From an uncultured Acidobacteriota bacterium (GTDB lineage: Bacteria; Acidobacteriota; Thermoanaerobaculia; UBA5066; Gp7-AA6), in the NCBI GenBank assembly GCA_963733955.1, contig CAVTEW010000002.1, forward strand, positions 5,863-69,862: a stretch of DNA of 64,000 nt, given 5' to 3'. This document shows, piece by piece, positions 10,343-63,313 of this stretch. Position 1 is the first letter of the stretch, and every line of letters starts with the position of its first letter. Below the pieces are notes generated by a model, which was given only the letters and a program-made list of their open reading frames with translations, was not told the DNA's origin and did not search any database. The position numbers and the translations under genes are program-made.

Positions 10343-10358
10343 TGATGAGAACTCATCA
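10343..10358. promoter_or_regulatory. Palindromic box TGATGAGAACTCATCA (extended CCTGATGAG-AA-CTCATCAGG)
   Basis: Perfect inverted repeat 48-63 nt upstream of the CBS start at 10295. Member of the recurrent 16-bp motif family. Confidence 0.6.
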
Positions 10359-10359
10359 G

Positions 10360-10397
10360 GGATGAGCGTGAGGCGTGAGGCGTAAGGCGTAAGGCGC
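10360..10397. repeat. Tandem heptanucleotide repeat (GGATGAG GCGTGAG GCGTGAG GCGTAAG GCGTAAG GCG)
   Basis: Period-7 repeats read directly from the sequence. They start about 20 nt downstream of the stop of the minus-strand acyl-CoA synthetase gene. Confidence 0.7.
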
Positions 10398-10416
10398 AGC
10401 CCGGAATTCGACCGCC

Positions 10417-13197
10417 TCAATACGCGATCCGGCGCGACGGCGGAAGAATCGGCCGCCGTCCCACGCGGATGCGGGCATCGACCACGCGAGCGCCGCTCGT
10501 CAGCACCTTGACCGGGTTCAGGTCCATCTCCCGAACCTCCGGGCAGTGCTCGACCAGGGCGGAGACGCGCAGGAGCAGATCCTTCAGAGCCGCTTCGTCC
10601 GCCGGCGCGGCGCCCCGGTAACCGCGCAGGAGCGCCGTTCCCTTGACCTCCTCGAGCATGGCCGTGACGTCGGCGTCGGTCAGGGGGTGCAGCCGGAAAG
10701 CCACGTCGGCGACGAGCTCGACCAAGATTCCGCCGCTGCCGTACAGGACCAGCGGGCCGAAGGTCGAGTCCTGCGTGACGCCGACGATCACCTCGACGCC
10801 CCCGGGCACCATGGCCTGGACCAGGAAATCGGTCAGACCGGGCCCCAGGCGCTCGCTCAGATCGCGGCAGGCGGCCAGGACCGCGGCGTCGTCGGCGAGG
10901 CCGAGACGCACGCCCCCGACCTCGGTCTTGTGGAGAATGGCCGGGCCCACCGCCTTGATGGCCACGGGAAATCCGATCTTCCGGGCCGCCGCCAGCGCGG
11001 CGGTCTCGTCGCGGGCGACCGCCATCTCGGCGACCGGAATTCGAAACGACGTCAGGAGTCCCTGGACGTCGGCCGGCCCCAGCCAGCCGCCGCCCGTTGC
11101 GAGAGCGCGATCGACGATGGCGCGCCCCCCGGCGACGTCGAGGTCGTCGTAGGGAGGGATCTCGCCCGGCGCCTCGGAGCGCCACTCGCCGTAGGCCGCG
11201 GCGCGGGCGAGCGCGAGCGCGGCGGACTCGGGAAAGGGATAGCAGGGGATGGTGGAGAGCGCCGAAGGCGTTCCCTTCGCGCTCATGAACGTGCCCAGGA
11301 CCGGCTTGCGCGCGCCCTTGGCGCCTTCCACGATGGCCGTGGCCACGGCGTCCGGATTGGTCGCGATGGGCGGGATGAAGATGACCAGGACGCTGTCGAG
11401 CTTTTCCTCCGCCAGGAGGATCTTGAGGGACTTGCGGTAGTGCTCGGGCGGGGCCGAGGCCAGCATGTCGACGGGATTGCCGACGCTCGCCGCGGCGGGC
11501 AGGAAGGCCCGGAGCTTCGCGGCGGTCGCCGGCGAGAGCGGCGGCAGGTTCAGGCCCTGCGCCTCGCAGACGTCGGCCGCCAGGATGCCCGGGCCGCCGG
11601 CGTTGGTCAGGATTCCGACGCGCCGCCCGCGGGGCACCGGCTGGTGCGCCAGGAGCGTCGCGACGTCGAAGAGCTCCTCCAGCGTCTGCGTCCGGATCAC
11701 GCCGGCCTGCCGGAAGAGAGCGTCGACCACCGGATCCGCTTCGGCCAGCGCTCCGGTGTGCGAGGTGGCGGCGCGGGACCCGGCCCGGGAGCGCCCGGAC
11801 TTGACCGCGATGATCGGCTTCTTGCGCGCCACGCGCCGGGCGATCCGGGAGAAGCGCACCGGATTGCCGAAGCTCTCCAGGTACAGGAGGATCACGTCCG
11901 TGCGCGGGTCTTCGGCCCAGTACTGGATCAGGTCGTTGCCCGACACGTCGGCCTTGTTGCCGACCGACACGAACGTCGAGATCCCCAGGTTGAGCTTGGA
12001 CGCGTAGTCGAGCAGCGCCAGCCCGAGGGCGCCGCTCTGCGAGGAGAGCGCCACGCGGCCGGCGGGAGGGTAGACCGGAGCGAAGGTGGCGTCGAGGCAG
12101 ACGTCCGGGTCGGTGTTGACCAGGCCCATGCAGTTGGGCCCGACCATGCGGATCCCGGCGGCGCGGATCTTCTCGACCAGGGCGGCCTCGCGGCGCCGCC
12201 CCTCGTCGCCGGTCTCGGAGAAGCCGGCGGTGATGACGATGATGGCCTTCACGCCCTTGGCCACGCAGTCGTCGACCGCGCCGCTGACGAGCTCGGCCGG
12301 GACGGAGAGGACCGCGAGATCGACCGGCCCGGGGACGTCGGTCAGACGGGCGAAGCTCGGGATGCCCAGGATCTCCTTGGCTTTCGGGTTGATCGGCACG
12401 ACCTTTCCCCGGAACCCGTTGGAGACGAGGTTATAGAAGATCTCGGCGCCGATCTTGCCGCGCTCGCGGCTGGCCCCGATGACCGCGACGACCTCGGGCT
12501 CGAAGAGCAGTTTCATCGAAGCCGTGGCGGCCCGCTCGGACCGCTCGGCGGACTGTTCCTCGTAGTGGGCGGTCGGCGTGAGGTCGAGGACGATCCGCTC
12601 GACGCCTTCCTCGATCCGCCGCCGGGTCGTGTCGAATCCGCAGTTGTGGAAGACGTCGATCATGCGCCGGTTGTGGCCCAGGACCTCGGCTTCGAACGTG
12701 GTGATTCCGTGCTGGCGGGCGATGTCGGCCAGGCGCTCGAGCAGCCGCGTCCCGACGCCTTGTCCCTGCAGCGCGTCTTCGACCGTGAAGGCGACCTCGG
12801 CGCGCTCGGGCCGTTTCGGATCGCGGAAGTAATGGGCCACGGCGACGATGCGTCCGGCCGCCTCGCCGACTAAGGCGAAGAGACTGTCGTAGTCGACCCG
12901 GCAGAAGCCCTCGGCCCGCTCGGCGTCGATCCTGGGGACCGAGAAGAAGCGAAAGTACAGGCTGTCCGGCGAGAGCCGCTTGTAGAAGGCCAGGAGGGCC
13001 GGCGCGTCCGACGGCCGGATCGGCCGCAGCCGCAGGGTCGATCCCGAGCGCAGGACGACGTCGCGCTCCTCGTGGGCCGGATACGCGGCCTCGGCAACGA
13101 CGGGGGTCGGGAAATCGGCGATCTTGATCGACAGGGCGGTACCTCCGACGCCACCTTCTCGCGGCCCGACGCGGGGTCCCTGATACGGATGCATCAT
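10417..13197 (-). CDS. Pat-like fusion: N-terminal GNAT acetyltransferase + ADP-forming acyl-CoA synthetase (CoA-binding, ligase, ATP-grasp)
   Basis: GNAT region (LRLRPIRPSD..QGQGVGTRLLE). CoA-binding/succinyl-CoA-synthetase-like region (VAVIGASRERGKIG, GPNCMG). ATP-grasp-type C-terminus. Confidence 0.88.
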   Translation of the reverse strand: MMHPYQGPRVGPREGGVGGTALSIKIADFPTPVVAEAAYPAHEERDVVLRSGSTLRLRPIRPSDAPALLAFYKRLSPDSLYFRFFSVPRIDAERAEGFCRVDYDSLFALVGEAAGRIVAVAHYFRDPKRPERAEVAFTVEDALQGQGVGTRLLERLADIARQHGITTFEAEVLGHNRRMIDVFHNCGFDTTRRRIEEGVERIVLDLTPTAHYEEQSAERSERAATASMKLLFEPEVVAVIGASRERGKIGAEIFYNLVSNGFRGKVVPINPKAKEILGIPSFARLTDVPGPVDLAVLSVPAELVSGAVDDCVAKGVKAIIVITAGFSETGDEGRRREAALVEKIRAAGIRMVGPNCMGLVNTDPDVCLDATFAPVYPPAGRVALSSQSGALGLALLDYASKLNLGISTFVSVGNKADVSGNDLIQYWAEDPRTDVILLYLESFGNPVRFSRIARRVARKKPIIAVKSGRSRAGSRAATSHTGALAEADPVVDALFRQAGVIRTQTLEELFDVATLLAHQPVPRGRRVGILTNAGGPGILAADVCEAQGLNLPPLSPATAAKLRAFLPAAASVGNPVDMLASAPPEHYRKSLKILLAEEKLDSVLVIFIPPIATNPDAVATAIVEGAKGARKPVLGTFMSAKGTPSALSTIPCYPFPESAALALARAAAYGEWRSEAPGEIPPYDDLDVAGGRAIVDRALATGGGWLGPADVQGLLTSFRIPVAEMAVARDETAALAAARKIGFPVAIKAVGPAILHKTEVGGVRLGLADDAAVLAACRDLSERLGPGLTDFLVQAMVPGGVEVIVGVTQDSTFGPLVLYGSGGILVELVADVAFRLHPLTDADVTAMLEEVKGTALLRGYRGAAPADEAALKDLLLRVSALVEHCPEVREMDLNPVKVLTSGARVVDARIRVGRRPILPPSRRIAY

Positions 13198-13270
13198 ACC
13201 CGCGGGCGGACCCGCGGGCGGGTTCTTCCCTGTGGCGAACGCGTCGCCGCCAGTCGAGGCCTTCGGCGGC

Positions 13271-13768
13271 CTACAGCGCGCGGATCAGCTCGGTCACGTC
13301 CGGGAGAGCCGGCGCGCTCGCGGGATAGCGCCGCTCGCCGATCTTCTGGAGCGTATGGACGACGTCGGAATGGGACACGCCGGTCGCTTCCCCGCCGGCG
13401 TCTGCCTGGCGGATCGCGTCGTTCAACGAGAGGATCCCCGAGAGGTTCCCCTCCGCGTCGACCACCGGAAGCCGCCGGACTCGCTTTTCCCGCATCATGG
13501 CCAGGGCGCGCCGGACGTGCGCCTCCGGCCGGCATGCCGCGACCGAGCGGCTCATCGCCTCGCCCACCGTCATCTCCGAGGGGCGGCGGTCGTTCTCGGT
13601 CAGGGCGATGCAGATGTCGCGGTCGGTGATGACGCCGACGACCCTGCCTTCGGAAACCACCGGCAGGACGCCCGAGTCGATCGACCGCAGGGTCCGGCCG
13701 GCCTCGGCCAGAGTGCGCTCGGGAGCGCAGCTGGTAACGCCGCGGGTCATCAGGCTTTCGATTCTCAT
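13271..13768 (-). CDS. CBS-pair domain protein
   Basis: MRIESLMTRGV..GVITDRDI..RRLPVVDAEGNLSGILSLND. Confidence 0.9.
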   Translation of the reverse strand: MRIESLMTRGVTSCAPERTLAEAGRTLRSIDSGVLPVVSEGRVVGVITDRDICIALTENDRRPSEMTVGEAMSRSVAACRPEAHVRRALAMMREKRVRRLPVVDAEGNLSGILSLNDAIRQADAGGEATGVSHSDVVHTLQKIGERRYPASAPALPDVTELIRAL

Positions 13769-13771: not shown

Positions 13772-14227
13772 TCACCCCCCGGTGTTTTCCCCGTCTGTCC
13801 GCCCGCAGATCGTCCGGTAGGCCTCGACGATCTCGCGGTCGGGCAGGGCTTCCATCGCGCCGGCCCGTCCCAGGACGTCATCGATGGACAGGATCCCGAC
13901 GAGCGCTCCGGAATCGTCCAGGACCGGCAGGCGGCGGACGCGTTCGCGCTGCATGGTCGTCAGCGCGGCGCCCAGGTTGTCGTTCTCGCGGCAGACGTGG
14001 ATCGGCCGGCTCATGACGTCCGCGACGGGCAGCTCGTTGGGGAGGCACTGGGCCGCTCCCAGGCCCATGCAGATGTCCCGATCGGTGATCATGCCGACGG
14101 TCTGTCCGCGCGAGACCACCGGGAGCGTGCCGCAGGCGCTCTCGGCCATGAGGACGGCCGCCGCGCCGAGCGTGGTCTGGGGCGTGCAGCAGACGGGATG
14201 ACGCGTCATCACCTGGCGCACTCGCAT
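13772..14227 (-). CDS. CBS-pair domain protein
   Basis: MRVRQVMTRHP..GMITDRDI..RRLPVLDDSGALVGILSIDD. Only 3 nt separate it from the next CBS gene. Confidence 0.9.
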   Translation of the reverse strand: MRVRQVMTRHPVCCTPQTTLGAAAVLMAESACGTLPVVSRGQTVGMITDRDICMGLGAAQCLPNELPVADVMSRPIHVCRENDNLGAALTTMQRERVRRLPVLDDSGALVGILSIDDVLGRAGAMEALPDREIVEAYRTICGRTDGENTGG

Positions 14228-14262: not shown

Positions 14263-14278
14263 TGATGCCGACGCATCA
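14263..14278. promoter_or_regulatory. Palindromic box TGATGCCGACGCATCA
   Basis: Perfect 6+6 inverted repeat in the divergent intergenic region, 36-51 nt from the CBS start at 14227. Confidence 0.6.
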
Positions 14279-14298: not shown

Positions 14299-14314
14299 TG
14301 ATGCATTCGCCTCA
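14299..14314. promoter_or_regulatory. Palindromic box TGATGCATTCGCCTCA (one core mismatch)
   Basis: Second box in the same divergent region. Its centre is 36 bp from the first, and it lies 66-81 nt upstream of the USP start at 14380. Confidence 0.5.
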
Positions 14315-14379: not shown

Positions 14380-15360
14380 ATGGTCAACGCAAACCAACCC
14401 CGGTTGAGAGTTCTCCTTCCGCTCAAGCCGAAGGACGACGTGGCGGACCTGGCGCGGCTGCTTCCCGCGCTGCTGCCCCCGGAGGCGACGCAACTGCGGC
14501 GCCTTTACGTCCATCGCCCGGTGGAAGCCGACGTCTTCATTCCGGAGACCTACGCCCGCCTGCCGGAAATCGCCCAGATCGAATTCGACGCGGAGAACGC
14601 CACCCGCGTGGAGACCGAGCGCGAGATGGCGCCGCTGGGGTCGGAGGGGTACGGCGTGACCTCGGAGGTCGTGCGCGGCAATCCCACCGAGGAGGTCCTG
14701 CGGGAGGCGAGCTTCTGGCGCGCCGACCTGGTCGCCGCGCGCACCCGCAGCGCGTCGGCCCAGGACCGCAAGATCGGCGGAATGGCCGCCGCGCTCCTCC
14801 ACCACGCGACCTGCGCCGTGCTGCTTCACCGGGAGATCCCGGAGGGGTACCGCATTCGGCGGGTCCTGATCCCGACGGACTTCTCCCGGGCGGCCCGTCA
14901 GAGCGCGGACTGGGGCCTGGCCCTGGCCGATTTGACCGGCGCCCAGCCGCACCTGCTACACGTGATCGCGCGCTGGAACAACCGCCACGGCATTCACCAG
15001 GACGAGCTGCTGCGCCTGGCCACCGACGAGCTCGAGCGCTGGCGCGCCCGCGGACATGCGCTCCTGCGCCGCCCCGTCGAGCAGGGCCAGGTCATCGAAG
15101 CGGCCACGCCGGCGGAGGGGATCCTTTCCTACGCGCAGCAGAAGCAGGTCGATCTGATCGTGGTCGCGGCCACCGGAATGTCGGCCGTCCGCGCGGCCCT
15201 GCTGGGATCCAACACGCGAAAGGTCGTGCGCGCCGCCGGCTGCCCGGTCGTCGTGATCCCCACGGCCAACCGGGTCAGCGCGCGGACGCTTCTGGATCGC
15301 GCGCGTGCCTTCGCGGCGAGGCCGGTCGAAGCCGGGACAGCCGTCGAGAGCGCGCGATGA
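14380..15360 (+). CDS. Tandem-domain universal stress protein
   Basis: Two USP domains (..LRVLLPL.., RRVLIPTDFSRAARQS..VVAATGMSAVRAALLGSNTRKVVRAAGCPVVVIP). ATG 14380 is preferred over GTG 14329, which would sit on the operator. Confidence 0.85.
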   Translation: MVNANQPRLRVLLPLKPKDDVADLARLLPALLPPEATQLRRLYVHRPVEADVFIPETYARLPEIAQIEFDAENATRVETEREMAPLGSEGYGVTSEVVRGNPTEEVLREASFWRADLVAARTRSASAQDRKIGGMAAALLHHATCAVLLHREIPEGYRIRRVLIPTDFSRAARQSADWGLALADLTGAQPHLLHVIARWNNRHGIHQDELLRLATDELERWRARGHALLRRPVEQGQVIEAATPAEGILSYAQQKQVDLIVVAATGMSAVRAALLGSNTRKVVRAAGCPVVVIPTANRVSARTLLDRARAFAARPVEAGTAVESAR

Positions 15361-15391
15361 GTGAACGAACCAACCGAGGAGGAGATTGACC

Positions 15392-15901
15392 ATGGCGACT
15401 TCGGAGACAGTGACCGGCAACTCCCCAAAGAAGCCCGCGGGCCCGCCCTCCGGGACTCCCAGGACCGTCCCCGCCGCCGGGAAAGTCCGGGTGCGGCTGG
15501 TGCGCGACCTGATGACCGAAACCGTCTTCACCCTGAGGGCGAAAGACGATCTGGCCACGCTCTACGACCTCATGGACTCCCGCCACGTCCGACACGTTCC
15601 GATCGTGGACGCGGAGGGCGAGATCGTCGGCCTGGTCACCCACCGCGACCTGTCGCGCTCGGCGCTCGGGGCGCTGGACGACCTGCCTCTGTCGGCCGAG
15701 CGCGACGAGCTGCGGCGCCGGAAGGTGCGCGACATCATGGCCACCGAGCCGGACACGATCGAGCCGGACGCGAGGCTCCAGGAAGCGGCGCAGATGCTCC
15801 TGGAGAACAAGATCGGCTGCGTCCCGGTCGTGGAGGGCCTGCACCTGGTGGGCATCCTGACCGAAGCCGACTTCGTCCGCGACTTCCTGGAGCGGGGCTG
15901 A
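15392..15901 (+). CDS. CBS-pair domain protein
   Basis: VRDLMTETV..HVPIVDAEGEIVGLVTHRDL..GCVPVVEGLHLVGILTEADF. SD GAGGAGGAG lies 7 nt before ATG 15392 (the track starts at TTG 15386). Confidence 0.88.
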   Translation: MATSETVTGNSPKKPAGPPSGTPRTVPAAGKVRVRLVRDLMTETVFTLRAKDDLATLYDLMDSRHVRHVPIVDAEGEIVGLVTHRDLSRSALGALDDLPLSAERDELRRRKVRDIMATEPDTIEPDARLQEAAQMLLENKIGCVPVVEGLHLVGILTEADFVRDFLERG

Positions 15902-15903
15902 CC

Positions 15904-16428
15904 GTGCGCGCGCGCCGGCTGGGCGTCGCGCTGATCAGCCTCCTCGCGCCGGTCCTGGCCGCGGTGACCTTCGCCGCGGTCGAGATCGAGAAGTTTCATC
16001 GCGTCGACGACCGCGTCTCCACCGGCGCGCAGCCGACCATCCCGCAGATCGCCTCCCTGGCTCAGGAAGGGTTCCGTACGGTGATCAACCTGCGGGAACC
16101 CATCGAGCACGAGGGCGCCGCGGAAGAAGCCGCGGTGAGGGACCTGGGAATGGACTACATCAACATCCCTGTCCGGACCACCGATCCCAGGGACGCGCAG
16201 GCCGACGCCTTTTTGAGGATCACGGCGGACGCCCGGATCTATCCCGTCTTCATTCACTGCGGAACCGCCAACCGCGTCGCGGCCTTCTGGATGATCCGGC
16301 GAATCGTCGTGGACGGCTGGGGCGCCGACGACGCCGAGAAGGAAGCTCGGGAGATCGGTCTGAAGAGCGCGGTGATGAGGGACTTCGCCCTCGACTACGC
16401 GCGTCGGCACGCCCGGAAAGAAGGCTGA
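15904..16428 (+). CDS. Cys-based phosphatase-like protein (CX5R: HCGTANR) with N-terminal signal/anchor
   Basis: VFIHCGTANRVAAFW P-loop typical of PTP/DSP-like (DUF442-type) domains. GTG start 2 nt after the CBS stop (junction GCTGACCGTG). Confidence 0.7.
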   Translation: MRARRLGVALISLLAPVLAAVTFAAVEIEKFHRVDDRVSTGAQPTIPQIASLAQEGFRTVINLREPIEHEGAAEEAAVRDLGMDYINIPVRTTDPRDAQADAFLRITADARIYPVFIHCGTANRVAAFWMIRRIVVDGWGADDAEKEAREIGLKSAVMRDFALDYARRHARKEG

Positions 16429-16430
16429 CC

Positions 16431-16847
16431 GTGTTCGCGCGGATCCTGGTGCCCGTCGATTTCTCGCCCCGCAGCCTCCGGGCGGCGCGCTCCGCGGCCC
16501 GCGTGGCCGCGAACGGAAAAGCGCAGGTCACGCTCCTGCACGTGATCGAGAAGATCGAGGACGCCGACATGCGCTCGCTCAAGACGTTCTATCGGAAGCT
16601 CGAACGGGCCGCCCGCGACCGGATGCGGCGATTCCTCGAGATCTTCCAGCGTCGGGGAGTCTCCGTGCGGGCGATGACGCTGTACGGCAAGCCGGTCAAC
16701 GACATCCTCCGCTTCGCCGAGGAAAACCGCTCCGACCTGATCGTCCTCTCCTCGCACAAGCTTCCCCTTCGGCACGGACAGAGCTGGGGCACGGTGAGCT
16801 ACAAGGTCGGAATCCTGGCCCGCTGCCCGGTCCTTCTGGTCAAGTAG
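16431..16847 (+). CDS. Universal stress protein
   Basis: FARILVPVDFSPRS..DLIVLSSHK..SVSYKVGILARCPVLLVK. GTG start with the same GCTGACCGTG stop-start junction as the previous gene pair. Confidence 0.88.
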   Translation: MFARILVPVDFSPRSLRAARSAARVAANGKAQVTLLHVIEKIEDADMRSLKTFYRKLERAARDRMRRFLEIFQRRGVSVRAMTLYGKPVNDILRFAEENRSDLIVLSSHKLPLRHGQSWGTVSYKVGILARCPVLLVK

Positions 16848-19057: not shown

Positions 19058-20560
19058 ATGACCGGCCGGAACGGGGCCACCGCGCGAACGGGGATTGCCG
19101 GGCTCGACGACGTCCTGGGGGGAGGCTTCCCCCGCAACCACGTCTATGTCGTCCAGGGCAGTCCCGGAGCCGGCAAGACGACGGTCGGCCTGCAGTTCCT
19201 CCTGTCCGGCAGGGCCGACGGAGAAACAGGGCTCTATGTCTCCCTGTCCGAGACCGAGCGGGAGCTCTCCGACGTCGCCGCCTCCCATGGGTGGTCGCTG
19301 GACGGGATCGCCGTGCAGGAAATCCTGTCCCCCGGCGACTCCGAGGGAGAGCGGGACAACACCCTGTTCCATCCCGCGGAGGTCGAGCTGGGGGAGACGA
19401 CGCGATCGATCTTCCAGCAGGTCGAGCGCCTGCGGCCGTCCCGCGTCGTCATCGACTCCCTCTCCGAGGTGCGCCTGCTCTCGGAGAATCCGCTGCGCTA
19501 CCGCCGGCAGATCGTGGCCCTCAAACAGTTCTTCGCCGGCCTGCGGTGCACCGCGCTCCTCCTGGACGACGCGGGCTCGAGCGGCGCGGACATCCACCTG
19601 CAGACGGTCTCGCACGGGGTCCTGCAGCTCGATCAGATCACCCCGCTCTACGGCGCGGAGCGCCGCCGCCTCTGGATCATCAAGCTGCGCGGCGTGAAGT
19701 TCCGCGGCGGCTATCACGATTTCAAGATCCAGACCGGCGGTCTCACCGTCTATCCCCGGCTGGTGGCCGCGGAGCACGGCGCGGAGGCGGCCGGCGAAGC
19801 CACGTCGAGCGGCCTGGCGGGCCTCGACATGCTCCTGGGCGGCGGCATCCAGCGGGGGACGACCGTTCTCATCATGGGGCCGGCCGGCACCGGGAAGTCC
19901 GCGATCGCGGCGCAATACGCGGCGGCCGCCGCGGGCCGCGGCGAGAACGTCGCGCTGTTTACGTTCGACGAGGGCCTGGGAACGCTCTTCGCGCGCACCG
20001 ACGCCCTGGGAATCTCCCTGCGTCGACACGTGGAGGGCGGGGCCGTCCGCGTGCAGCAGATCAATCCCGCGGAGCTCTCGCCCGGCGAGTTCGCCCATCT
20101 GGTCCGGACGAGCGTGGACGAGGCCGGCGCGCGCATGGTCATCATCGACAGCCTGAGCGGCTATTACAGCTCCATGCCCGAGGAGCATCTGCTCTCGGTC
20201 CAGCTCCACGAGCTCTTCACGTTTCTGCGCAAGCAGGGGGTGATCGTCATCCTGACGCTGCCCCAGCACGGGTTCGTGGGGGCGCACGTCGACGCGTCGT
20301 TCGACGTCAGCTATCTCGCCGACACGGTCATCCTGATGCGGTACTTCGAGACGTTGGGGGAGATCCGCAAGGCGATCTCGGTCGTCAAGAAGCGCAGCGG
20401 CCGCCACGAATCGACCATCCGCGAGCTGGCCATGGACGACAAGGGCCTGCGGATCGGGCAGCCCCTCAGGGACTTCCAGGGCGTTCTCACGGGTATCCCG
20501 GCCTTCGCCGGGGCCTCCGGATCCTTGCTCCAGGACAGGGATGGCCGCTCCGATCGCTGA
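19058..20560 (+). CDS. kaiC: KaiC-family double RecA-like ATPase
   Basis: Two KaiC/RecA domains with Walker A motifs GSPGAGKT and GPAGTGKS. TGIAGLDDVLGGGFP and SGLAGLDMLLGGGI. SD GGAAGGGGAGG before ATG 19058. Confidence 0.85.
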   Translation: MTGRNGATARTGIAGLDDVLGGGFPRNHVYVVQGSPGAGKTTVGLQFLLSGRADGETGLYVSLSETERELSDVAASHGWSLDGIAVQEILSPGDSEGERDNTLFHPAEVELGETTRSIFQQVERLRPSRVVIDSLSEVRLLSENPLRYRRQIVALKQFFAGLRCTALLLDDAGSSGADIHLQTVSHGVLQLDQITPLYGAERRRLWIIKLRGVKFRGGYHDFKIQTGGLTVYPRLVAAEHGAEAAGEATSSGLAGLDMLLGGGIQRGTTVLIMGPAGTGKSAIAAQYAAAAAGRGENVALFTFDEGLGTLFARTDALGISLRRHVEGGAVRVQQINPAELSPGEFAHLVRTSVDEAGARMVIIDSLSGYYSSMPEEHLLSVQLHELFTFLRKQGVIVILTLPQHGFVGAHVDASFDVSYLADTVILMRYFETLGEIRKAISVVKKRSGRHESTIRELAMDDKGLRIGQPLRDFQGVLTGIPAFAGASGSLLQDRDGRSDR

Positions 20561-25143: not shown

Positions 25144-25159
25144 TGATGTAAACGCATTA
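25144..25159. promoter_or_regulatory. Palindromic box TGATGTAAACGCATTA (one core mismatch)
   Basis: Lies in the divergent feoB / hypothetical-gene intergenic region. Confidence 0.4.
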
Positions 25160-25584: not shown

Positions 25585-25610
25585 CGAGGCCCGGCCGCGC
25601 GGACAGGCGC

Positions 25611-52418: not shown

Positions 52419-52423
52419 CCCCG

Positions 52424-53077
52424 TCAGCCCCTGAGAGTCGAGAGCAGTTCGGTGTCGATATGCTCGAACTCGCGGCTGATGTGATTGATCGCGATCCCCA
52501 TCACGAAGACGCCCACGAGCAAGTCCAGAAGGATCCCCAGCTCGACCGCAAACGGGACCTGCTCGACCAGTGTCTGGCCGAATATGAAGATGCCGTTTTC
52601 CAGCATCAGGTAACCCACGACCTGAGTGACCGCCTTCCGACGGCTGACGAGGACCAGGAATCCCACGAGCACCGTCGCGAAGGCCATGGGAACGAGCAGG
52701 GGCGTCGGCGCAGGCCTGGGCAGAACGAGAACCGTGCCGAGCCAGAACGAGAACCCCACCAGCGCTGCCGCGATGAGGAGGGAGAAGTGCAGGCTGATGA
52801 AAGGCTCGGCCTCGCGGCGCACATTGGCCTCGCGAATCGCACGGGAAAGCAAGAGCGGAATGACGATGGCCTTGACGGCCAGCGCTCCCAGGCTCATCAA
52901 CGCGACGGGTACCAGATGCCGGTCGAGCGACGGGCCCCAGAGCGCGAGAGGCAAGAGCGAGAGCGCCACGCCCTGCAGCGCCGAGGCCCGCACACAGCTC
53001 GTCAGGCGGCTGGTGGCGACGATGGAGACGGAAAGCGTGGTCACGACCAGGAGCAGAAGATCCGCGTAACCGCTCAT
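52424..53077 (-). CDS. HyfE-like small membrane subunit
   Basis: 217-aa polytopic protein with GYLMLENGIFIFG, characteristic of HyfE/EhrC-type subunits. ATGA overlap with the upstream gene. Confidence 0.75.
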   Translation of the reverse strand: MSGYADLLLLVVTTLSVSIVATSRLTSCVRASALQGVALSLLPLALWGPSLDRHLVPVALMSLGALAVKAIVIPLLLSRAIREANVRREAEPFISLHFSLLIAAALVGFSFWLGTVLVLPRPAPTPLLVPMAFATVLVGFLVLVSRRKAVTQVVGYLMLENGIFIFGQTLVEQVPFAVELGILLDLLVGVFVMGIAINHISREFEHIDTELLSTLRG

Positions 53078-53997: not shown

Positions 53998-53998
53998 G

Positions 53999-55987
53999 TC
54001 ACTGTCCCATTCCCGTGAGCTGCCAGACCAGGAGCGCGACGAGGGTCACCGCGATGTAGACGAGATAGAGCTGGAGGCGGCCCTGCTGGATCGCATGGAG
54101 CCGGGAAAGCGCCCGAACCACGCGCCGGACCGCGGGCAAGAGAATCCGCTCGCCGGCCATGTCGCCCAGGTGTTCTTCATAGTGGGCCGCGCCTGGAAAA
54201 TATCCATCGGGGCCCTGTTGGTCGACGCGCGTGGAAATCACCGGCGTGAACAGCGCGAGAATCGGCTGTGCGAAGGAGGCTGCAGTGTACTGCATTCGAG
54301 AGGTTCCCGCCGCGTAGCCGCAGCCCCAGGTCGCCCCCCGCGACACCGAACGGCCGCGAAGGAGGGCCAGGCGGACCAGTCCGAGCAGCAGAACGAGAAC
54401 GAGGAGCACGACGCTCACTCGCGTGATTGCGGAAAGCGCTGCGGCGTTGGGAAACGCGTCCGCCTTCTTTCCGAGAAACGCAGCCGTCGGCGCCACGACC
54501 CGCATCGCTCCCGCCGGCCAGAGTCCAATCGCGAAGCACAGGAGCGCCCCCAAAAGCATCGGCGCTCGCATCAGGGGCCCGGCTTCGTGGGCCTTCGAAG
54601 CGGCCTCCGTGCGGGGCTGACCCAGGAAAACGACGCCGAACGCCTTCACGAAGCACGTCGCGGCCAACCCCCCGACGAGCGCCAGCGCCGGAACCACGGC
54701 GAGCGCCCAAACAGCCCATGTGGTTGGGAAGAAGGCGCCGCCCCGGAACGCGCCGATGTAGATCAGCCACTCACTGACGAAGCCATTGAGAGGCGGCAGA
54801 CCGCAGATGGCGACGGAACCGACGAGAAACGTCGCGGCTGTCGTTGGCATGCGGCGGGAGAGGCCTCCGAGTTTGTCGATGTCCCGCGTACCGGTGCCGT
54901 GAGCGACGCTGCCGGCTCCCTGAAAAAGAAGACCCTTGAAGAGCCCGTGATTGAGAACATGGAGCAGAGCTCCCGCGAAGCCCAGGAAGGCGACGGAAGG
55001 GTTTCCCTGGCTCTGCCCCAGAAGACCAAGGCCAATTCCCAGCGCAATGATTCCGATGTTCTCGACGCTGTGGTAGGCCAGGAGACGCTTGAGGTCGTGC
55101 TGAGCCAGGGCATGGAGCACGCCGGCCACCCCGGAAACGGCTCCGATGGCGATCAGGAGAGCGCCCCACCACACCGGCGGCGGCCCGAGGAACGAAAGAA
55201 TTCGGAGCAGCCCGTAGATCCCCATCTTGATCATCACGCCCGACATCACGGCGGAGACGTGACTCGGCGCGGCCGGGTGCGCGTCGGGGAGCCAGATGTG
55301 CATCGGCCAGAAGCCGGCCTTGGTCCCGAAACCGACGACGGCGAGCAGGAACGCAACACCCGCGAGCGCCGGAGTCGTGGCGCCGGCCGCCGCCAGAGCG
55401 TCGAAATCGTAGGTGCCCGACTCCTTGCCCAGAACGGCGATCAGGACGAACAGGAAGACGACGCCGAGCTGGGAGGCGATCAGGTACGTCATCCCGGCCC
55501 GGCGAACCTCCTCGCGCTCGCTCTCGAAAGTCACAAGGAAGAACGAAGCCAGCGTCATGATCTCCCAGGCCAGGAGAAAGAGAATGCCGTCCCGAGCGAT
55601 CGCCACCACGGCCATGGCGGCGACGAGCAGGTTGAAGAAGAAAACGGCCGGCGCCAGGCGCCGCTTCCCGAGGTCGGCACGCAGGTATCCTCCCCCGTAA
55701 ATCGCCGAGAGGCCCGACACCAGGAAGACGCAGACCAGGAAGAACGAGGAGAGCGGGTCGAGCGCGACGTGGAGCTCTCCCACCGGCAGCGGCCAGGCCG
55801 CGCGCAGCCCGCTCCGCGAGCCTGAGATCAGCGCGGAAAAGGCCGCCGAAAGACCCGTGGCGCAAGCGAGCCCGGCTCCGACCGTGCCGATCCACAGCGC
55901 GGCTCGGTTGGAACGGCCCGACAGGGCCGCGGCGAGGGCGCTGGCGCACAGGAGAGCGATCGAAAGCAGGACGATCTCGAGCTGCAC
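53999..55987 (-). CDS. NuoL/HycC/HyfB-like antiporter-type membrane subunit
   Basis: GFGTKAGFWPMHIWLPDAHPAAPSHVSAVMSGVMIKMG and LLAYHSVENIG. GTG 55987 is chosen as the start because the longer ORF overlaps the upstream regulator. Confidence 0.85.
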   Translation of the reverse strand: MQLEIVLLSIALLCASALAAALSGRSNRAALWIGTVGAGLACATGLSAAFSALISGSRSGLRAAWPLPVGELHVALDPLSSFFLVCVFLVSGLSAIYGGGYLRADLGKRRLAPAVFFFNLLVAAMAVVAIARDGILFLLAWEIMTLASFFLVTFESEREEVRRAGMTYLIASQLGVVFLFVLIAVLGKESGTYDFDALAAAGATTPALAGVAFLLAVVGFGTKAGFWPMHIWLPDAHPAAPSHVSAVMSGVMIKMGIYGLLRILSFLGPPPVWWGALLIAIGAVSGVAGVLHALAQHDLKRLLAYHSVENIGIIALGIGLGLLGQSQGNPSVAFLGFAGALLHVLNHGLFKGLLFQGAGSVAHGTGTRDIDKLGGLSRRMPTTAATFLVGSVAICGLPPLNGFVSEWLIYIGAFRGGAFFPTTWAVWALAVVPALALVGGLAATCFVKAFGVVFLGQPRTEAASKAHEAGPLMRAPMLLGALLCFAIGLWPAGAMRVVAPTAAFLGKKADAFPNAAALSAITRVSVVLLVLVLLLGLVRLALLRGRSVSRGATWGCGYAAGTSRMQYTAASFAQPILALFTPVISTRVDQQGPDGYFPGAAHYEEHLGDMAGERILLPAVRRVVRALSRLHAIQQGRLQLYLVYIAVTLVALLVWQLTGMGQ

Positions 55988-55992: not shown

Positions 55993-56685
55993 TTACTCGG
56001 AGCGCGCCGCGGCGGCGCGGGCCTCTTCTTCGATGGCGCGGAGACGGTCCAGGATCTCTTCCCGCGGCGCGGTTCTCTCCAGGAGGCTCTGGAGCGCGTC
56101 GTCGTGCAAGGCGAAGGCGAGGCGGGCGAACATCTGGAGGTGGACCCGCACCGACGGCGACAGCAGCACGAACAGGACGCGCACGGGCCGGCCGTCCAGG
56201 GCATGAAAATCGATCGGCCGGCGGAGGAAACAAACCAGGACCACAGGCTCATCGGTGTGAACCACGACGGGATCGCGCGGGTGCGGAATCGCGATGCCGT
56301 TGCCGATGCCGGTCGACGCGAGCGCCTCCCGCGCGGCCAGGAGCTGGTGGAGGAGCTGCCGGTCGACGCGCGGCGGGATCCCCGGCAACCGGGAAACCGC
56401 CTGCAGAACGTCCTCGCGCCGCTCGCCCGGGATGTCGTAGAAGATGCCGCCCCGGCCGATCGCCGCGGAAAGGCTCGAGACCTCTTCGGACGCGCCGTTG
56501 CCGGCGAGCAGCTCGGGCGAGACCCGATGCTCGTGCAGCGCGGCCCACTCCTGCAGCTCGACGCGGTGGAACATGTACTGGTCATGAATCCGGTGAGCCG
56601 GCAGGGAGCCGCTGCGGATCCAGCGGTAGATGGTCTGCTCCGAAACGTTGAGCAGGCGAGCGACGTCTCGAACTCTCAGTTCCAT
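55993..56685 (-). CDS. HTH (excisionase/MerR-like) + PTS EIIA(Ntr/Fru)-type domain regulator
   Basis: MELRVRDVARLLNVSEQTIYRWIRSGSLPAHRI, and an EIIA-2 core with the TGIGNGIAIPH histidine loop. Confidence 0.8.
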   Translation of the reverse strand: MELRVRDVARLLNVSEQTIYRWIRSGSLPAHRIHDQYMFHRVELQEWAALHEHRVSPELLAGNGASEEVSSLSAAIGRGGIFYDIPGERREDVLQAVSRLPGIPPRVDRQLLHQLLAAREALASTGIGNGIAIPHPRDPVVVHTDEPVVLVCFLRRPIDFHALDGRPVRVLFVLLSPSVRVHLQMFARLAFALHDDALQSLLERTAPREEILDRLRAIEEEARAAAARSE

Positions 56686-56734
56686 CGGCGCAAGCTCCTC
56701 GCGAGTCTCGAAAGTGGGACGGCCATGACCCTGG

Positions 56735-57475
56735 CTAGCGCTTGGCCGGCTTGGTCCCGGCGGCTGTCCGGGGCCCATCGTCCAAGGCGACCTTGCGCTC
56801 CGTCGCGGCAACGGCCCGAAAGATCGACTGGGCGTCGGACGCGTCGAGGACGGCCCGGACGGCCTCCGCGCGCGCGAACATGTGCGCGAGCTTGTTGAGC
56901 CACGGAAGGTAGAGCTCCTCGAACTTGAGGCCGAGCGCGAAGAAGAGATGGGTCGGCCCGCCGTCCAGAGCGTCGAAGTCCACTCCCGGCCGCGAGCGGC
57001 CGAGGAGCATGAACGGACGGGAGACCTGCTCGGGATTTCGGCGCAGGGTGTGGAGAAAGGCGACGCCGTTGCCCATGGCGCTGGGCATCACATTCTCGCG
57101 CTCGATCAACGCCCCGACGAACCAGGTCTTGTCCCGCACGAGGCCTAATCGGGCGGCCAGACCCGCGAGCTCCTCGATGACCGTGTTCTTCGTCGCGGCT
57201 TCCAGATCGGGCACGATGTGGTCCGGCTGAAAGCAGGTGGCCAGCGCGAGCATGCGCCGTGGGGAGCCTTCCAGGCGCGGCGCGTCCACGTACCGCGGCA
57301 TCACGCCGAGCATCTGGTCGTCGAGCCACGTGTCGATCATGGCCTTCCGAAAGCGCCACTGGTTCCCCACCTTGACTCCGGGGAGGGCGCCGTCCGAGAC
57401 GAGCTTGGCCACGGTCCGGTCGTTCACGCTCAGGTACTCCGCCAGCTGCTTGATCGTCATCAAACGATCTTCCAT
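56735..57475 (-). CDS. HTH (excisionase/MerR-like) + PTS EIIA-type domain regulator (paralogue)
   Basis: LMTIKQLAEYLSVNDRTVAKLVSDGALPGVKVGNQWRF, and EIIA-like SAMGNGVAFLH. SD GGAGAA lies 9 nt before the ATG. Confidence 0.8.
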   Translation of the reverse strand: MEDRLMTIKQLAEYLSVNDRTVAKLVSDGALPGVKVGNQWRFRKAMIDTWLDDQMLGVMPRYVDAPRLEGSPRRMLALATCFQPDHIVPDLEAATKNTVIEELAGLAARLGLVRDKTWFVGALIERENVMPSAMGNGVAFLHTLRRNPEQVSRPFMLLGRSRPGVDFDALDGGPTHLFFALGLKFEELYLPWLNKLAHMFARAEAVRAVLDASDAQSIFRAVAATERKVALDDGPRTAAGTKPAKR

Positions 57476-61321: not shown

Positions 61322-61337
61322 TGATGTAATCACATCA
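61322..61337. promoter_or_regulatory. Palindromic box TGATGTAATCACATCA
   Basis: Perfect 6+6 inverted repeat in the divergent xfp / membrane-protein region, 48-63 nt from the xfp ATG. Confidence 0.6.
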
Positions 61338-61373: not shown

Positions 61374-61910
61374 ATGGTGTCGAGAGAGCGGTGGACCCCG
61401 GTCTCCATGAGCCTCATGGCTCGCGCGCTGGCCGGCTTCGGGCTGGCCGCGGCCGCGGCGGCGTCCTCCCCCCGGGCGCTGCCCATGATCCTGGGCGCCT
61501 ACGCCTTTGCCGACGCGCTCGTCCTGTTGCAGCTCTCTTCCGGGCTCCCGAGCCGCGCGCTGTTCGTGTCCGGCTTCGCGGGCCTGGCTCTGGCCGCGTT
61601 GTTGCTCCTTGCCCCTCCGGCCTCCGCCTTCGGCCTGAACGCGCTCGTGGGCGTGTGGGCCATGGCCATGGGGCTGCTCGGGCTCCTGGGCGCCGGCGCC
61701 TTCGGGGCCGTCCCCGTCGAGCGGTCCCTCTTCGCGTCGGGGAGCGTGGGGGGCATCGTGGTCGGAAGCTGGCTCGGAGTTTCTCCCCATGCGGCTGCGG
61801 CGACGCTCTCCGTTCTGATCGCCGCGCTCGGGCTCGCCGTCGGCGGTTCGTCGCTCGCCGTGGCCGTCCGGCGTCGATCTGATGCAGTCGCATCATGCGG
61901 TGGGGTCTGA
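61374..61910 (+). CDS. Hypothetical integral membrane protein (Gly/Ala-rich TM repeats, HdeD/DUF308-like)
   Basis: Only the last 178 codons of track ORF 58926..61910 are taken. They contain five or six hydrophobic segments. Confidence 0.55.
   Translation: MVSRERWTPVSMSLMARALAGFGLAAAAAASSPRALPMILGAYAFADALVLLQLSSGLPSRALFVSGFAGLALAALLLLAPPASAFGLNALVGVWAMAMGLLGLLGAGAFGAVPVERSLFASGSVGGIVVGSWLGVSPHAAAATLSVLIAALGLAVGGSSLAVAVRRRSDAVASCGGV
61881..61896. promoter_or_regulatory. Palindromic box TGATGCAGTCGCATCA
   Basis: Perfect 6+6 inverted repeat 80-95 nt upstream of the USP start at 61976 (inside the 3' end of the preceding ORF). Confidence 0.6.
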
Positions 61911-61975: not shown

Positions 61976-62431
61976 ATGAAGATTCTCGTAGCCACAGACG
62001 GATCCAGAGGCAGCACGGCGGCCCTGAGCTTCGCTGCGAAACTCGCCGGCGGCGAGGGCGCGGAGCTGATCGTGCTGACCGTCGATCCGAGCAACGGGTC
62101 GCGGCCCGGACTCCGCGAGGTCGGCAAGGACGGTCCCGCGGCGGCCGTGCGGCCGGAAGCGCGCAAGACCCTGGACGCGGCGGCGCGCGAGATCAAGCGT
62201 CACCACGCCAAGGCCCAGTTTCAGACGATCTCGGCGAGGCGGCAGGACGAGATTCCCGACGTGATCTCCCGGGAAGCCGATCGGATCAAGGCCGATCTCG
62301 TGATCGTCGGAAGCGAAGGCCGGGACACCCTGAACGAATGGGTCGTCGGCGGCGTCGCCCTGCGCCTGATCTACGTGGCGCGCCGGCCGGTCACGGTCGT
62401 GCGTCCGCCCCGGCGCCGGCAGGCGAGCTAG
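61976..62431 (+). CDS. Universal stress protein
   Basis: MKILVATDGSRGS..DLVIVGSEGRDTLNEWVVGGVALRLIYVARRPVTVV. SD AAGGAG. Confidence 0.88.
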   Translation: MKILVATDGSRGSTAALSFAAKLAGGEGAELIVLTVDPSNGSRPGLREVGKDGPAAAVRPEARKTLDAAAREIKRHHAKAQFQTISARRQDEIPDVISREADRIKADLVIVGSEGRDTLNEWVVGGVALRLIYVARRPVTVVRPPRRRQAS

Positions 62432-62461
62432 ATTGATCCGGGCCGAAGCCTAGATGTCAGG

Positions 62462-63136
62462 TTGAAGCCGGAGCAGACCTTGTTCCAGAATTCCGAAGCC
62501 CTGGACCGCATCTCCCGCAGCGGCGAGGCCGTGTTCGCGATCGACTCCGCGGATCGCATCGTTCTCTGGAACAAGCGGTGCGAGGAGCTGCTCGGCCGTC
62601 CGGCCAAGAGCGTCCTCGGCAAGCGCTGCTACGAGGTGATGGGCGGGCGCGACCCCAACGGCAACGTCTACTGTTATCGCAACTGCCCGGTCGCCTTCCA
62701 GTCGCGCGAGCGGCCCAAGGAGCCGGTCAAGCGCTTCGAGCTGTCCGTGGAGGGGCCCCGGGGAGGGCGCCGCTGGATCGAGGTCTCCATGTTCGCGATT
62801 CCGTCCTACCACCCCGCGCTGGCCACGGTGGTGCACGTGCTGCGCGAAGGGAAGGACAAAGAGACGCCGCTCGAGCACGCCCTGAGCCGCGAGGCCGAGG
62901 CCCGCGAGCCGCTCTGGCCAATGATGACCAACGACGGCAAGCCGGTCGACCTGACCAACCGCGAGAAGGAGATCCTGCGGTCGATGGCCGGGGGGCTCTC
63001 CACCGCCGCGATTTCCAGGCGGCTCTTCATCTCGCCGGTGACGGTCCGAAACCACATCCAGAACATCCTGCACAAGTTGAACGTCCACACCAAGCTCGCC
63101 GCCGTGGTCTTCGCCTACCAGCACGAGTTGATTTAG
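62462..63136 (+). CDS. PAS (4-Cys) + LuxR/GerE-type HTH one-component regulator
   Basis: PAS-like RIVLWNKRCEELLG.. with Cys spacing C-X15-C-X14-C-X3-C. C-terminal LTNREKEILRSMAGGLSTAAISRRLFISPVTVRNHIQNILHKL. The start is TTG 62462 or, better aligned with the paralogue, TTG 62480. Confidence 0.85.
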   Translation: MKPEQTLFQNSEALDRISRSGEAVFAIDSADRIVLWNKRCEELLGRPAKSVLGKRCYEVMGGRDPNGNVYCYRNCPVAFQSRERPKEPVKRFELSVEGPRGGRRWIEVSMFAIPSYHPALATVVHVLREGKDKETPLEHALSREAEAREPLWPMMTNDGKPVDLTNREKEILRSMAGGLSTAAISRRLFISPVTVRNHIQNILHKLNVHTKLAAVVFAYQHELI

Positions 63137-63276
63137 GCGGGACTCGGGATCGACGGAAGACTGAGGACTTCATCGGGCCGCGCCCGAATCTGTCTTTCCC
63201 CGAATCTCCGCCTGCAGGGCCACACGGAACTCATTCATCGCGAGCCCTTTAGCCTGGTGAAAACGCCTCATCGGCC

Positions 63277-63292
63277 TGATGTGGATTCATCA
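63277..63292. promoter_or_regulatory. Palindromic box TGATGTGGATTCATCA
   Basis: Exact core. First of two boxes upstream of the second PAS-LuxR gene. Confidence 0.55.
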
Positions 63293-63297
63293 GGAAT

Positions 63298-63313
63298 TGA
63301 TGCATTCGCATCA
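63298..63313. promoter_or_regulatory. Palindromic box TGATGCATTCGCATCA
   Basis: Perfect 6+6 inverted repeat. Its centre is 21 bp from the previous box, and it lies 47-62 nt upstream of ATG 63360. Confidence 0.6.

Follow-up and report, generated by a model that had tools for sequence, protein, structure and literature searches.

A conserved 16-bp palindrome, very probably a transcriptional operator, recurs at stress, maintenance and fermentation operons of Thermoanaerobaculia-related bacteria, with PAS-GerE proteins as its candidate regulators

The DNA analysed here (hereafter the window) is a 64-kb stretch of contig CAVTEW010000002.1 from an uncultured member of the Acidobacteriota, class Thermoanaerobaculia, and the element in question is a 16-bp palindrome that recurs along it. 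The window has a G+C content of ~70% and holds 58 called genes, which were called by third-position G+C and annotated by Pfam. Twenty-one copies of the palindrome span ~53 kb and precede USP, CBS and metabolic operons; two genes for PAS-GerE (LuxR-type) proteins, hereafter PAS-LuxR proteins, lie at the right-hand end. The exact core TGAT-N8-ATCA has 13 matches in the window, where 100 dinucleotide-preserving shuffles averaged 0.21 and never exceeded 2; so AT-rich a core is unexpected at this base composition. The original prediction, made from the letters of the window alone, had put the chance expectation at ~0.1 exact cores per window. The spacing is specific, since TGAT-Nx-ATCA has 1, 1, 0, 0, 0 and 2 matches in the window for x = 4, 5, 6, 7, 9 and 10, respectively, against the 13 for x = 8. 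In full, the sites conform to an inverted repeat of 7-2-7 layout with the consensus TGATGCR-WW-YGCATCA. Scores of a palindromised weight matrix built from the exact-core sites were bimodal: 21 window sites reached 16.4 bits or more, and no other position exceeded 11.6 bits.

All 11 sites that had been predicted as exact are present in the window, one of them at 61880 instead of 61881, and the five one-mismatch sites (14299, 25144, 33210, 35279 and 35315) are as described. Two copies that had been called weaker (29517 and 43821) fall in the upper score group of the matrix scan, and two exact-core sites, 13181 and 30484, had been overlooked. The sites and the candidate regulator genes are listed below in window coordinates; hexamers are given with their distance from the first T of the motif, in the direction of the side named.

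10343-10358, TGATGAGAACTCATCA: upstream of a CBS gene (9816-10295, minus strand) and a P-type ATPase gene (7100-9679, minus strand), with Pfam matches to CBS and E1-E2 ATPase; exact core, intergenic; 25.6 bits with the window matrix and 20.1 bits with the clade-wide matrix; GACCAT (nAnnnT) at +39 toward the minus-strand genes.
13181-13196, TGATACGGATGCATCA: before a GNAT plus ADP-forming acyl-CoA synthetase (Pat-like) gene (10417 to ~13150, minus strand); exact core; within an over-long open reading frame it touches no more than the first codons.
14263-14278, TGATGCCGACGCATCA: CBS-CBS operon (13772-14221 and 13271-13768, minus strand); exact core; CAAGAT at +40, minus side.
14299-14314, TGATGCATTCGCCTCA: operon of tandem-USP, CBS, dual-specificity phosphatase and USP genes (14380-16847, plus strand; Pfam); one core mismatch; 24.4 bits; GAGCAT at +40, plus side.
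22263-22278, TGCTGCAGATGGATCA: doubtful site inside a DtxR/FeoA gene; 16.6 bits, the lowest of the upper group; without a -10 at the right distance.
25144-25159, TGATGTAAACGCATTA: between the divergent FeoB (23085-25109, minus strand) and DUF5335-PRTase (25210-26267, plus strand) genes; one core mismatch; TAGGCT on the minus side and AATGCT on the plus side, each at +39.
27477-27492, TGATGCGTCCACATCA: upstream of a nitroreductase gene (27640-28191, plus strand; Pfam Nitroreductase); exact core; TACTTT at +40, plus side only.
29517-29532, TGATCTGAACGCACCA: weaker site between CBS (28854-29309, minus strand) and YkuD (29650-30444, plus strand) genes; 21.8 bits with the window matrix and 15.5 bits with the clade-wide matrix; GAGCAT at +39 on the minus side, pointing to the CBS gene.
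30484-30499, TGATTCGAACGGATCA: orphan site between the 3' ends of the YkuD gene (plus strand) and a ZnuA-like gene (minus strand); exact core, high-scoring.
31223-31238, TGATCCACTTGGATCA: between the ZnuA-like gene (minus strand) and archease-RtcB (31222 or ~31315 to 33212, plus strand); exact core; TACACT at +39 on the minus side and TAGGTT at +41 on the plus side.
33210-33225, TGAGGCATTTGCATCA: upstream of PfkB-HPF (33312-34710, plus strand; Pfam PfkB and Ribosomal_S30AE); one core mismatch; TTTCAT at +39; its TGA doubles as the RtcB stop codon.
35279-35294, AGATCCAGCTGCATCA: CBS gene (34742-35224, minus strand); one core mismatch; CAAGCT at +39, minus side.
35315-35330, TGATGCAATCGGACCA: radical SAM-DUF302 (35378-36907, plus strand; Pfam); one core mismatch; GACCCT at +39, plus side.
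36950-36965, TGATGAGTTCGGATCA: upstream of USP-USP-CBS (~37030-38758, plus strand); exact core; GAGGAT at +39; USP domain from residue 28 of the long open reading frame.
38808-38823, TGATTCGAACGCATCA: upstream of a USP gene (38902-39345, plus strand), followed by a second USP and an ABC1 kinase gene (Pfam); exact core; GATGCT at +39.
43821-43836, TGATGCGAACGAACCA: weaker site upstream of two small genes (43558-43794 and 43314-43532, minus strand), neither with a Pfam match; 18.4 bits; TAGTTT at +39, minus side, a very good -10.
48495-48510, TGATGTATCTGCATCA: upstream of PFOR plus a DHODH-like gene (~48440-43871, minus strand); exact core.
61322-61337, TGATGTAATCACATCA: upstream of phosphoketolase-acetate kinase (61274-57628, minus strand; Pfam XFP and Acetate_kinase); exact core.
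61880-61895, TGATGCAGTCGCATCA: upstream of the USP / PAS-LuxR-1 operon; perfect 12-base consensus; extended -10, ctgTTAATTC, at +39.
61976-62431, plus strand: USP gene heading the regulator operon (Pfam Usp).
62480-63136, plus strand: PAS-GerE (LuxR-type) protein 1, 218 residues, candidate regulator (Pfam PAS and GerE).
63277-63292, TGATGTGGATTCATCA: distal site of the tandem before PAS-LuxR-2; exact core.
63298-63313, TGATGCATTCGCATCA: proximal site before PAS-LuxR-2; top score in the window, 28.9 bits.
63360-63998, plus strand: PAS-GerE protein 2, a paralogue 62% identical to protein 1 (Pfam); the window ends after the second base of its stop codon.

Pfam confirmed the gene families that had been assigned to the flanking genes (CBS, USP, Pat, FeoB, nitroreductase, archease-RtcB, PfkB-HPF, radical SAM, PFOR, phosphoketolase and the two PAS-LuxR proteins). 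Eighteen of the 21 sites are intergenic, where intergenic DNA makes up 13% of the window and genes 87% (binomial p = 1e-13). Sites 13181 and 31223 overlap the starts of open reading frames in which more than 30 residues precede the Pfam domain (the archease domain from residue 32 of the long frame in the latter case), and therefore almost certainly lie upstream of the true starts. The sole site clearly within a gene is 22263, which is probably not functional. The orphan site 30484 is flanked by convergent 3' ends and has a good -10 (TAGTCT at +39) directed antisense into the ZnuA-like gene. The latter (30517-31200) matches only the first 157 of the 263 ZnuA profile positions, its C-terminus is nonsense-like, and it may be frameshifted or a pseudogene.

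The motif is conserved among relatives. An alignment-based scan with one genome per GTDB species yielded a comparison set of 79 loci (1.19 Mb) from uncultured Acidobacteriota, all chosen for containing a PAS-LuxR gene (L numbers below are our labels for loci and contigs). The exact core occurs 200 times in these 79 Thermoanaerobaculia-related loci where 2.2 occurrences are expected from composition, and enrichment over expectation amounts to 60-90 fold. With rough gene calls, 195 of 213 sites in the 79 loci and the window are intergenic (p = 1e-111), so that the motif is far from being as frequent inside genes as between them. In the other genomes, the motif precedes the USP gene heading the regulator operon in 23 of 31 orthologues, Pat in 14 of 20, DUF5335 in 13 of 22 and FeoB in 6 of 7; 13 sites precede PFOR orthologues, 25 precede PAS-LuxR genes, and other USPs are preceded as well. 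Altogether 48 sites in other genomes directly precede PAS-LuxR genes or their leading USP gene. Several families preceded by a site in the relatives are absent from the window: HSP20, PNPOx-like, BON-domain and multihaem cytochrome c proteins, enoyl-CoA hydratase, Zn-dependent alcohol dehydrogenase and a variant radical-SAM protein. Also absent from the window is a Cys-rich protein of 136-160 residues (C.C...C.GF...CCDVETRE.C.CDGWN.FDN) that adjoins PAS-LuxR and stands directly behind the operator in 24 loci (for example L007:1689-2111, L053:10689-11105 and L020:2021-2431, all on the minus strand); this neighbour of ~140 residues matched no family in Pfam or NCBIfam.

We then aligned 150 non-redundant sites, each oriented toward its nearest gene, for a profile of information content. 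Information is confined to the 16 bp and a weak A/T preference at the immediately adjoining base, and the flanks are at background. All 16 positions are informative, including the central R-WW-Y. The absence of flank conservation rules out a mobile repeat, and the possibility of a dispersed repeat that had been raised with the original prediction is thus not borne out. A second signal lies further downstream, with A at +40/+41 and T at +44/+45 from the first motif T, corresponding to TAnnnT in two registers that differ by a single base; divergent promoters show its mirror image at -23 to -28. At almost every window site an nAnnnT hexamer stands at +39 to +41 toward the flanked gene. If this hexamer is the -10 element, the site is centred at about -42.5 or -43.5 and takes the place of the -35 element. 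Site pairs are of two kinds. Pairs 36 bp apart serve divergent promoters, as at 14263 and 14299, which form back-to-back divergent promoters, and at 35279 and 35315. Tandems are 18-22 bp apart, about two helical turns; 63277 and 63298 are separated by 21 bp, i.e. two helical turns, and a tandem also precedes the second paralogue in L001, L002 and L006 and in metagenome contigs L112, L116, L121, L136 and L147.

Orthologous promoters retain the same footprint. Upstream of PFOR (loci L002, L015, L021, L022 and L035) the order is TGATGCAGATRCATCA, 22 diverged bases, TAAsgT, 6-9 bases (7 nucleotides in the window) and ATG. This footprint was read from motif-anchored sequences, since the MAFFT alignment was disturbed by inconsistent start-codon calls. 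The ATG lying 6-9 nucleotides past the -10 suggests that the mRNA is probably leaderless, and the window PFOR gene call (GTG at 48407) is probably ~30 nucleotides too short, with the start at ~48440. Upstream of the USP orthologues the motif is followed by 22-23 bases and TG-n-TAATTC, TATCAA or TACACA, with the site at the same distance in 26 of 32 and an extended TGn -10 in many promoters. In both families the motif and the -10 are kept while the spacer of ~22 nucleotides has diverged. These features together leave us highly confident that the palindrome is a conserved transcriptional operator. Judged from the promoter sequences, it would likely serve as a class II-type activator site; a centre near -41.5 agrees with that class but is also common to LuxR-type activators and is therefore non-discriminating as to the protein.

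The candidates for that protein are the two PAS-GerE proteins. Protein 1 has more than 700 homologues at 70-91% identity, of which the named ones belong to Thermoanaerobaculia. Both genes have sites at their own promoters (61880 for the USP / PAS-LuxR-1 operon, 63277/63298 for PAS-LuxR-2), and none of the other window genes with DNA-binding domains (DtxR/FeoA and two HTH_17-EIIA genes) has a site at its own promoter. At their C-terminus lies a GerE helix-turn-helix (HTH) domain like those of NarL, LiaR, VraR and DosR. Its helix residues T-V-R-N-H hardly vary at all among 130 full-length representatives of clusters at 50% identity, which predicts a family-wide half-site. A high-affinity NarL site consists of 16-bp inverted heptamers with a 2-bp spacer, and the geometry of the palindrome matches it.

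Thirteen Holophagales-type loci (L065-L077) carry a homologue that is 44-47% identical and has an identical recognition helix, VTVRNHIQNIL. A distinct palindrome was expected at such a distance. The exact-core search found no match in these loci, and the weight matrix gave exactly one strong hit per ~20 kb in 12 of the 13; the hit, TGGTGCATTCGCATCA, is one base off the core, so that the expectation of a distinct palindrome was rejected in favour of a near-identical motif occurring once per locus. The site lies ~45 nucleotides before the ATG of the homologue (e.g. L065:9934-9949), and window site 63298 differs from this autoregulatory site by one base. Alignment of the upstream regions showed the site and a TAGAAT hexamer to be conserved, whereas the 10-nucleotide spacer between them varies, and the ATG follows 11 nucleotides after the hexamer. 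The Holophagales-type site is thus ~11 bp closer to the -10, overlapping the -35 region and the spacer. No clustering of the regulon around the gene for the regulator is seen in these genomes. Conservation in orthologues across a class, the fixed distance to the -10 and the autoregulatory sites at PAS-LuxR genes in two clades all support the predicted regulon operator. From the same body of sequence comparisons we infer the identity of the regulator and its activating role; that the PAS-GerE proteins are the cognate factor appears somewhat more probable than all other possibilities combined.

The N-terminal part of the proteins suggests what they might sense. Four Cys residues are invariant in close homologues; in the wider family (clusters at 50% identity), Cys50, Cys65 and Cys69 are invariant and His119 is found in 124 of 131 sequences, giving the pattern C50-x14-C65-x3-C69 plus H119. 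In an AlphaFold2 model of moderate confidence (predicted local distance difference test score, pLDDT, of 66), which was used only for secondary structure, architecture and topology, the Cys/His set falls on Eα, the start of Fα and Iβ. These elements line the canonical PAS cofactor pocket. The best Foldseek matches were EL222 (8a5r/3p7n), VqmA (6ide/6kju) and 3clo, and the PAS part had no sequence-level match in the PDB. The flavin motif of LOV domains (GxNCRFLQ) is not in evidence, as the alignment of PAS-GerE homologues contains no NCRFL. Cys-ligated Fe-S clusters do occur in PAS domains, as in NreB (PMC13478379) and OrpR (PMC8359166). The Fe-S motif of NreB is CX2CX11C(X2C) (PMC13478379). 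Speculatively, the Cys3-His set of the PAS pocket could hold a metal or Fe-S centre, or form a thiol switch, that reads the signal. That the PAS-LuxR proteins sense redox state or O2 through such a centre is a tentative proposal to which we give rather less than even weight.

The flanked genes give an idea of the programme under control. In the window and the relatives, the stress and maintenance cargo comprises many USP and CBS proteins, HPF, RtcB/archease, Pat-type acetyltransferase, nitroreductase, PRTase, HSP20 and PNPOx-like proteins; transport is represented by the P-type ATPase and FeoB, and fermentation by PFOR and phosphoketolase-acetate kinase. Because this cargo resembles the DosR regulon and the lxa locus, compared below, we infer a programme for persistence under low oxygen or energy limitation ('dormancy'). 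In the model that we propose, a dimeric factor would bind the site centred ~42-43 bp upstream of the transcription start, at the usual place of the -35 element, and the bound dimer would activate transcription together with the TAnnnT -10 element in a class II-type manner. At divergent operon pairs, two sites 36 bp apart would serve one promoter each. The factor would most likely be one or both of the PAS-GerE one-component proteins (62480-63136 and 63360-63998), which would also activate their own expression. In its broadest form, in which an unrecognised one-component family of ~220 residues (Cys3-His PAS plus NarL-type HTH; mostly from Acidobacteriota, with ~100-150 clusters at 50% identity) is the direct sensor of oxygen or redox state and switches on a dormancy regulon across Thermoanaerobaculia, the proposal is possible but should be held as a conjecture.

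A number of points weigh against the PAS-GerE proteins as activators and sensors of this kind. The co-localisation of motif and regulator is biased, since the comparison loci were picked through their PAS-LuxR gene, and a site before a regulator gene also fits mere membership of the regulon. The closer position of the site in the Holophagales-type clade fits autorepression, so that activation would not be universal. Alone among the well-scoring sites, 61322 lacks a recognisable -10 at +39 to +41 toward its own gene, and the architecture of the phosphoketolase promoter may differ. On the sensory side, the structural model is only moderately confident, and homology to NreB-like Fe-S PAS domains was rejected for want of any sequence relation and for the different Cys spacing; NreB is kept only as a precedent. 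The palindrome also has unrelated uses elsewhere. When metagenomes were scanned for tandem perfect sites, 96 contigs were recovered, and only 7 of them are part of this system; the remaining ones, with a GC fraction of 0.37-0.74, include eight vapBC-like PIN-toxin loci and several tandem-repeat arrays. Outside the clade the palindrome alone is therefore non-diagnostic, and the scan was of no use in assigning a regulator. In the former, tandem TGATGC-N4-GCATCA pairs 21 bp apart lie ~270 nucleotides upstream of genes for PIN-domain (VapC-like) toxins (L085, L117, L120, L128, L162 and others) and are presumably antitoxin operators that share the palindrome by coincidence. In the latter, the palindrome lies within arrays of 20-38-bp tandem repeats (L101, L115, L148, L165 and L171). 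Further points of this kind belong to the best-placed alternative, that of a CRP/FNR-family protein.

According to this alternative, the palindrome is bound under anoxia by a CRP/FNR-family class II activator encoded outside the window, and the PAS-LuxR genes are plain members of its regulon. A site centre at about -42 is the canonical FNR/CRP class II position, the TGAT...ATCA half-sites resemble the TTGAT of FNR, and PFOR, FeoB, USPs and fermentation genes are typical of Anr/FNR regulons. NtcA binds TGTA-N8-TACA at -41.5 with the same 4-N8-4 geometry, so geometry alone leaves room for a CRP/FNR protein. The lxa locus of Burkholderia has TGA-N6-TCA at 17 intergenic points along with Anr-like candidate regulators (PMC3721108), and CRP-like genes occur in 6 of our 79 related loci. 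None of these CRP-like genes has a site at its own promoter, however, and the 64-kb window that holds 21 sites contains no CRP/FNR homologue by Pfam (58 genes), phmmer or tblastn with E. coli CRP/FNR and clade-specific CRP-like queries. All 16 positions are informative here, whereas CRP/FNR and NtcA sites have an uninformative centre, and the sole Holophagales-type site, at the promoter of the PAS-LuxR homologue, is better explained by autorepression by the gene's own product. The original prediction set the motif apart from the boxes of FNR, CRP, Rex and DosR and considered it suited to a dimer of either the CRP/FNR or the GerE/LuxR type. Pattern searches agree with the former point: the CRP, Rex, NtcA and Dev-box patterns have no exact match in the window, the CRP box TGTGA-N6-TCACA has none even with one mismatch, and the Dev-box core GGGAC-N4-GTCCC has three one-mismatch matches unrelated to promoters. 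The single window match to the FNR box TTGAT-N4-ATCAA (TTGATCGTCATCAA, 57450-57463; ~0.002 expected by composition) was attributed to chance, as these bases code for L-M-T-I-K where an HTH_17-EIIA gene begins, and the box has no match in the 79 loci (1.19 Mb). On this evidence we regard a CRP/FNR protein as unlikely, at perhaps a third of the weight given to the PAS-GerE proteins.

Another dimeric regulator is more improbable still, be it an HTH_17-EIIA protein (55993-57463) or a factor from elsewhere in the genome that is Rrf2/NsrR-like or TetR-like. Two unusual HTH_17 plus PTS-EIIA2 proteins are encoded inside the cluster, the half-site GATGCA resembles the NsrR half-site, and the use of the same palindrome by vapBC-like systems of other taxa means that it is not exclusive to one protein family. 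The HTH_17-EIIA genes, on the other hand, lack a site at their own promoters and have no homologue in the related loci among the families that recur or that adjoin a site, and MerR-like factors bind between -35 and -10, not at -42; the window has no Rrf2 or TetR gene, and NsrR sites have an 11-1-11 geometry. Finally, a -35-like element of an alternative sigma promoter, a dispersed repeat (a remnant of a repetitive extragenic palindrome or a miniature inverted-repeat transposable element) or chance could account for the many copies and, in the first case, for the fixed distance to a -10-like element, but is very improbable and largely refuted by the perfect two-fold symmetry with equally conserved halves, the use of both orientations with service to divergent promoters, the unconserved flanks and the 60-90 fold enrichment kept across genomes with diverged intergenic DNA.

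Other features of the window touch these subjects less directly. The two HTH_17 (excisionase/MerR-like) plus PTS EIIA-2 fusions are adjacent paralogues (55993-56685 and 56735-57463, minus strand). The membrane operon that follows directly downstream (48596-55987) is of the complex-I-like/group-4 hydrogenase type, and the two proteins may form a separate regulatory layer. A strong positive AT skew of the plus strand (up to 0.31) between 48000 and 56000 coincides with the minus-strand membrane-subunit genes of that operon. A KaiC homologue followed by a hybrid histidine kinase/response regulator (19058-22151, plus strand) lies in the middle of the cluster without an operator site. A tRNA-Sec gene with anticodon TCA (2404-2501, minus strand; 68 bits with Rfam) indicates that the organism makes selenoproteins, and a TonB-dependent receptor fits a diderm.

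Thermoanaerobaculia are widespread in soils and sediments and essentially uncultured, and to our knowledge nothing is known of their gene regulation. Full-text literature searches turned up no account of this motif, of its regulon or of the protein family, and no curated NCBIfam or Pfam family covers the full-length PAS-GerE protein; to call the operator undescribed rests on these negative searches of literature and family libraries. The analysis yields an operator that can be scanned for, a regulon of ~20 operons here with more in relatives, and a candidate sensor-regulator. If the proposed scheme is true, metatranscriptomes could be read for a dormancy or low-oxygen switch, and the Cys3-His PAS module would join the catalogue of gas and redox sensors. 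The system would also be a convergent, single-protein counterpart of mycobacterial DosS/DosT-DosR with a 7-2-7 operator of its own, suggesting that 'dormancy' sets of USP, CBS, HPF and nitroreductase genes came together independently in phyla that are very far apart, each time under LuxR-type regulators.

The DosR/DevR regulon is the closest functional parallel. In M. tuberculosis it contains USPs, Rv2626c, nitroreductases, pfkB, Rv0079, ctpF and hspX, and the operon Rv3134c-dosR-dosS is led by a USP gene (PMC3177182). The cargo described here largely matches it family for family (USPs, CBS, nitroreductase, pfkB, hibernation factor, P-type ATPase and HSP20). Rv0080, with its PNPOx-like annotation, adds another parallel. 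Both systems have an autoregulated regulator operon led by a USP gene, a GerE/NarL-type HTH (PDB matches 1zlk and 3c3w) and a palindromic box that is centred on W-W, overlaps the -35 region and may be repeated in tandem in helical phase. In contrast, the Dev box is GGGACT-WW-AGTCCC and the sequence here is TGATGCR-WW-YGCATCA; the candidate regulator has a Cys3-His PAS domain, with neither a phospho-receiver domain nor a cognate kinase, and the only hybrid kinase gene in the window (20625-22151) has no site upstream. The phylum, Acidobacteriota, is diderm, and the HTH is closer to those of LiaR, VraR and NarL than to that of DosR. Lacking a receiver domain, the candidate is not a DosR orthologue, and the likeness is one of functional analogy or convergence, not of membership.

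The lxa (low-oxygen-activated) locus of B. cenocepacia is a USP-rich chromosomal cluster of ~50 genes, with a cation ATPase and metabolic genes, that is needed for anoxic persistence (PMC3721108). Its inverted repeat occurs at 17 intergenic points and at a few loci elsewhere, and control by an Anr-like CRP protein has been proposed (PMC3721108). The present cluster is likewise USP-rich and ~50 kb long, with one inverted repeat at ~20 intergenic points. The lxa motif is TGA-N6-TCA (Anr/FNR-like) as opposed to TGA-N10-TCA with an informative centre here, and CRP/Anr candidates are encoded in the lxa locus, whereas the window has no CRP and a resident PAS-LuxR instead.

The PAS-GerE proteins share with EL222, VqmA, 3clo of Bacteroides and the PimM-type proteins of Streptomyces an N-terminal PAS domain, a C-terminal GerE HTH and a length of ~210-230 residues. 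PAS/LOV-LuxR factors bind palindromic DNA as dimers once the PAS domain is activated. The operator sequences of EL222, VqmA and PimM differ from TGATGCR-WW-YGCATCA, and the proteins described here have no LOV flavin-Cys motif, a unique set of Cys50, Cys65, Cys69 and His119, and another regulon. NarL has a homologous HTH (1je8 and 1a04) and the same 16-bp 7-2-7 arrangement, but its heptamer is TACYYMT and not TGATGCR. NreBC shows that a PAS domain can hold a Cys-ligated Fe-S cluster reporting O2 or sulfide (PMC13478379). The Cys pattern differs, being C-x14-C-x3-C...H here and CX2CX11C(X2C) there, and sensor and HTH are fused in one polypeptide here instead of being split between a kinase and a response regulator. 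Palindromic-operator regulons, PAS-LuxR factors and dormancy-type USP regulons are thus all of known kinds; what is new is their combination, in a 7-2-7 operator, a Cys3-His PAS-LuxR family and a dormancy-like regulon of the Acidobacteriota.

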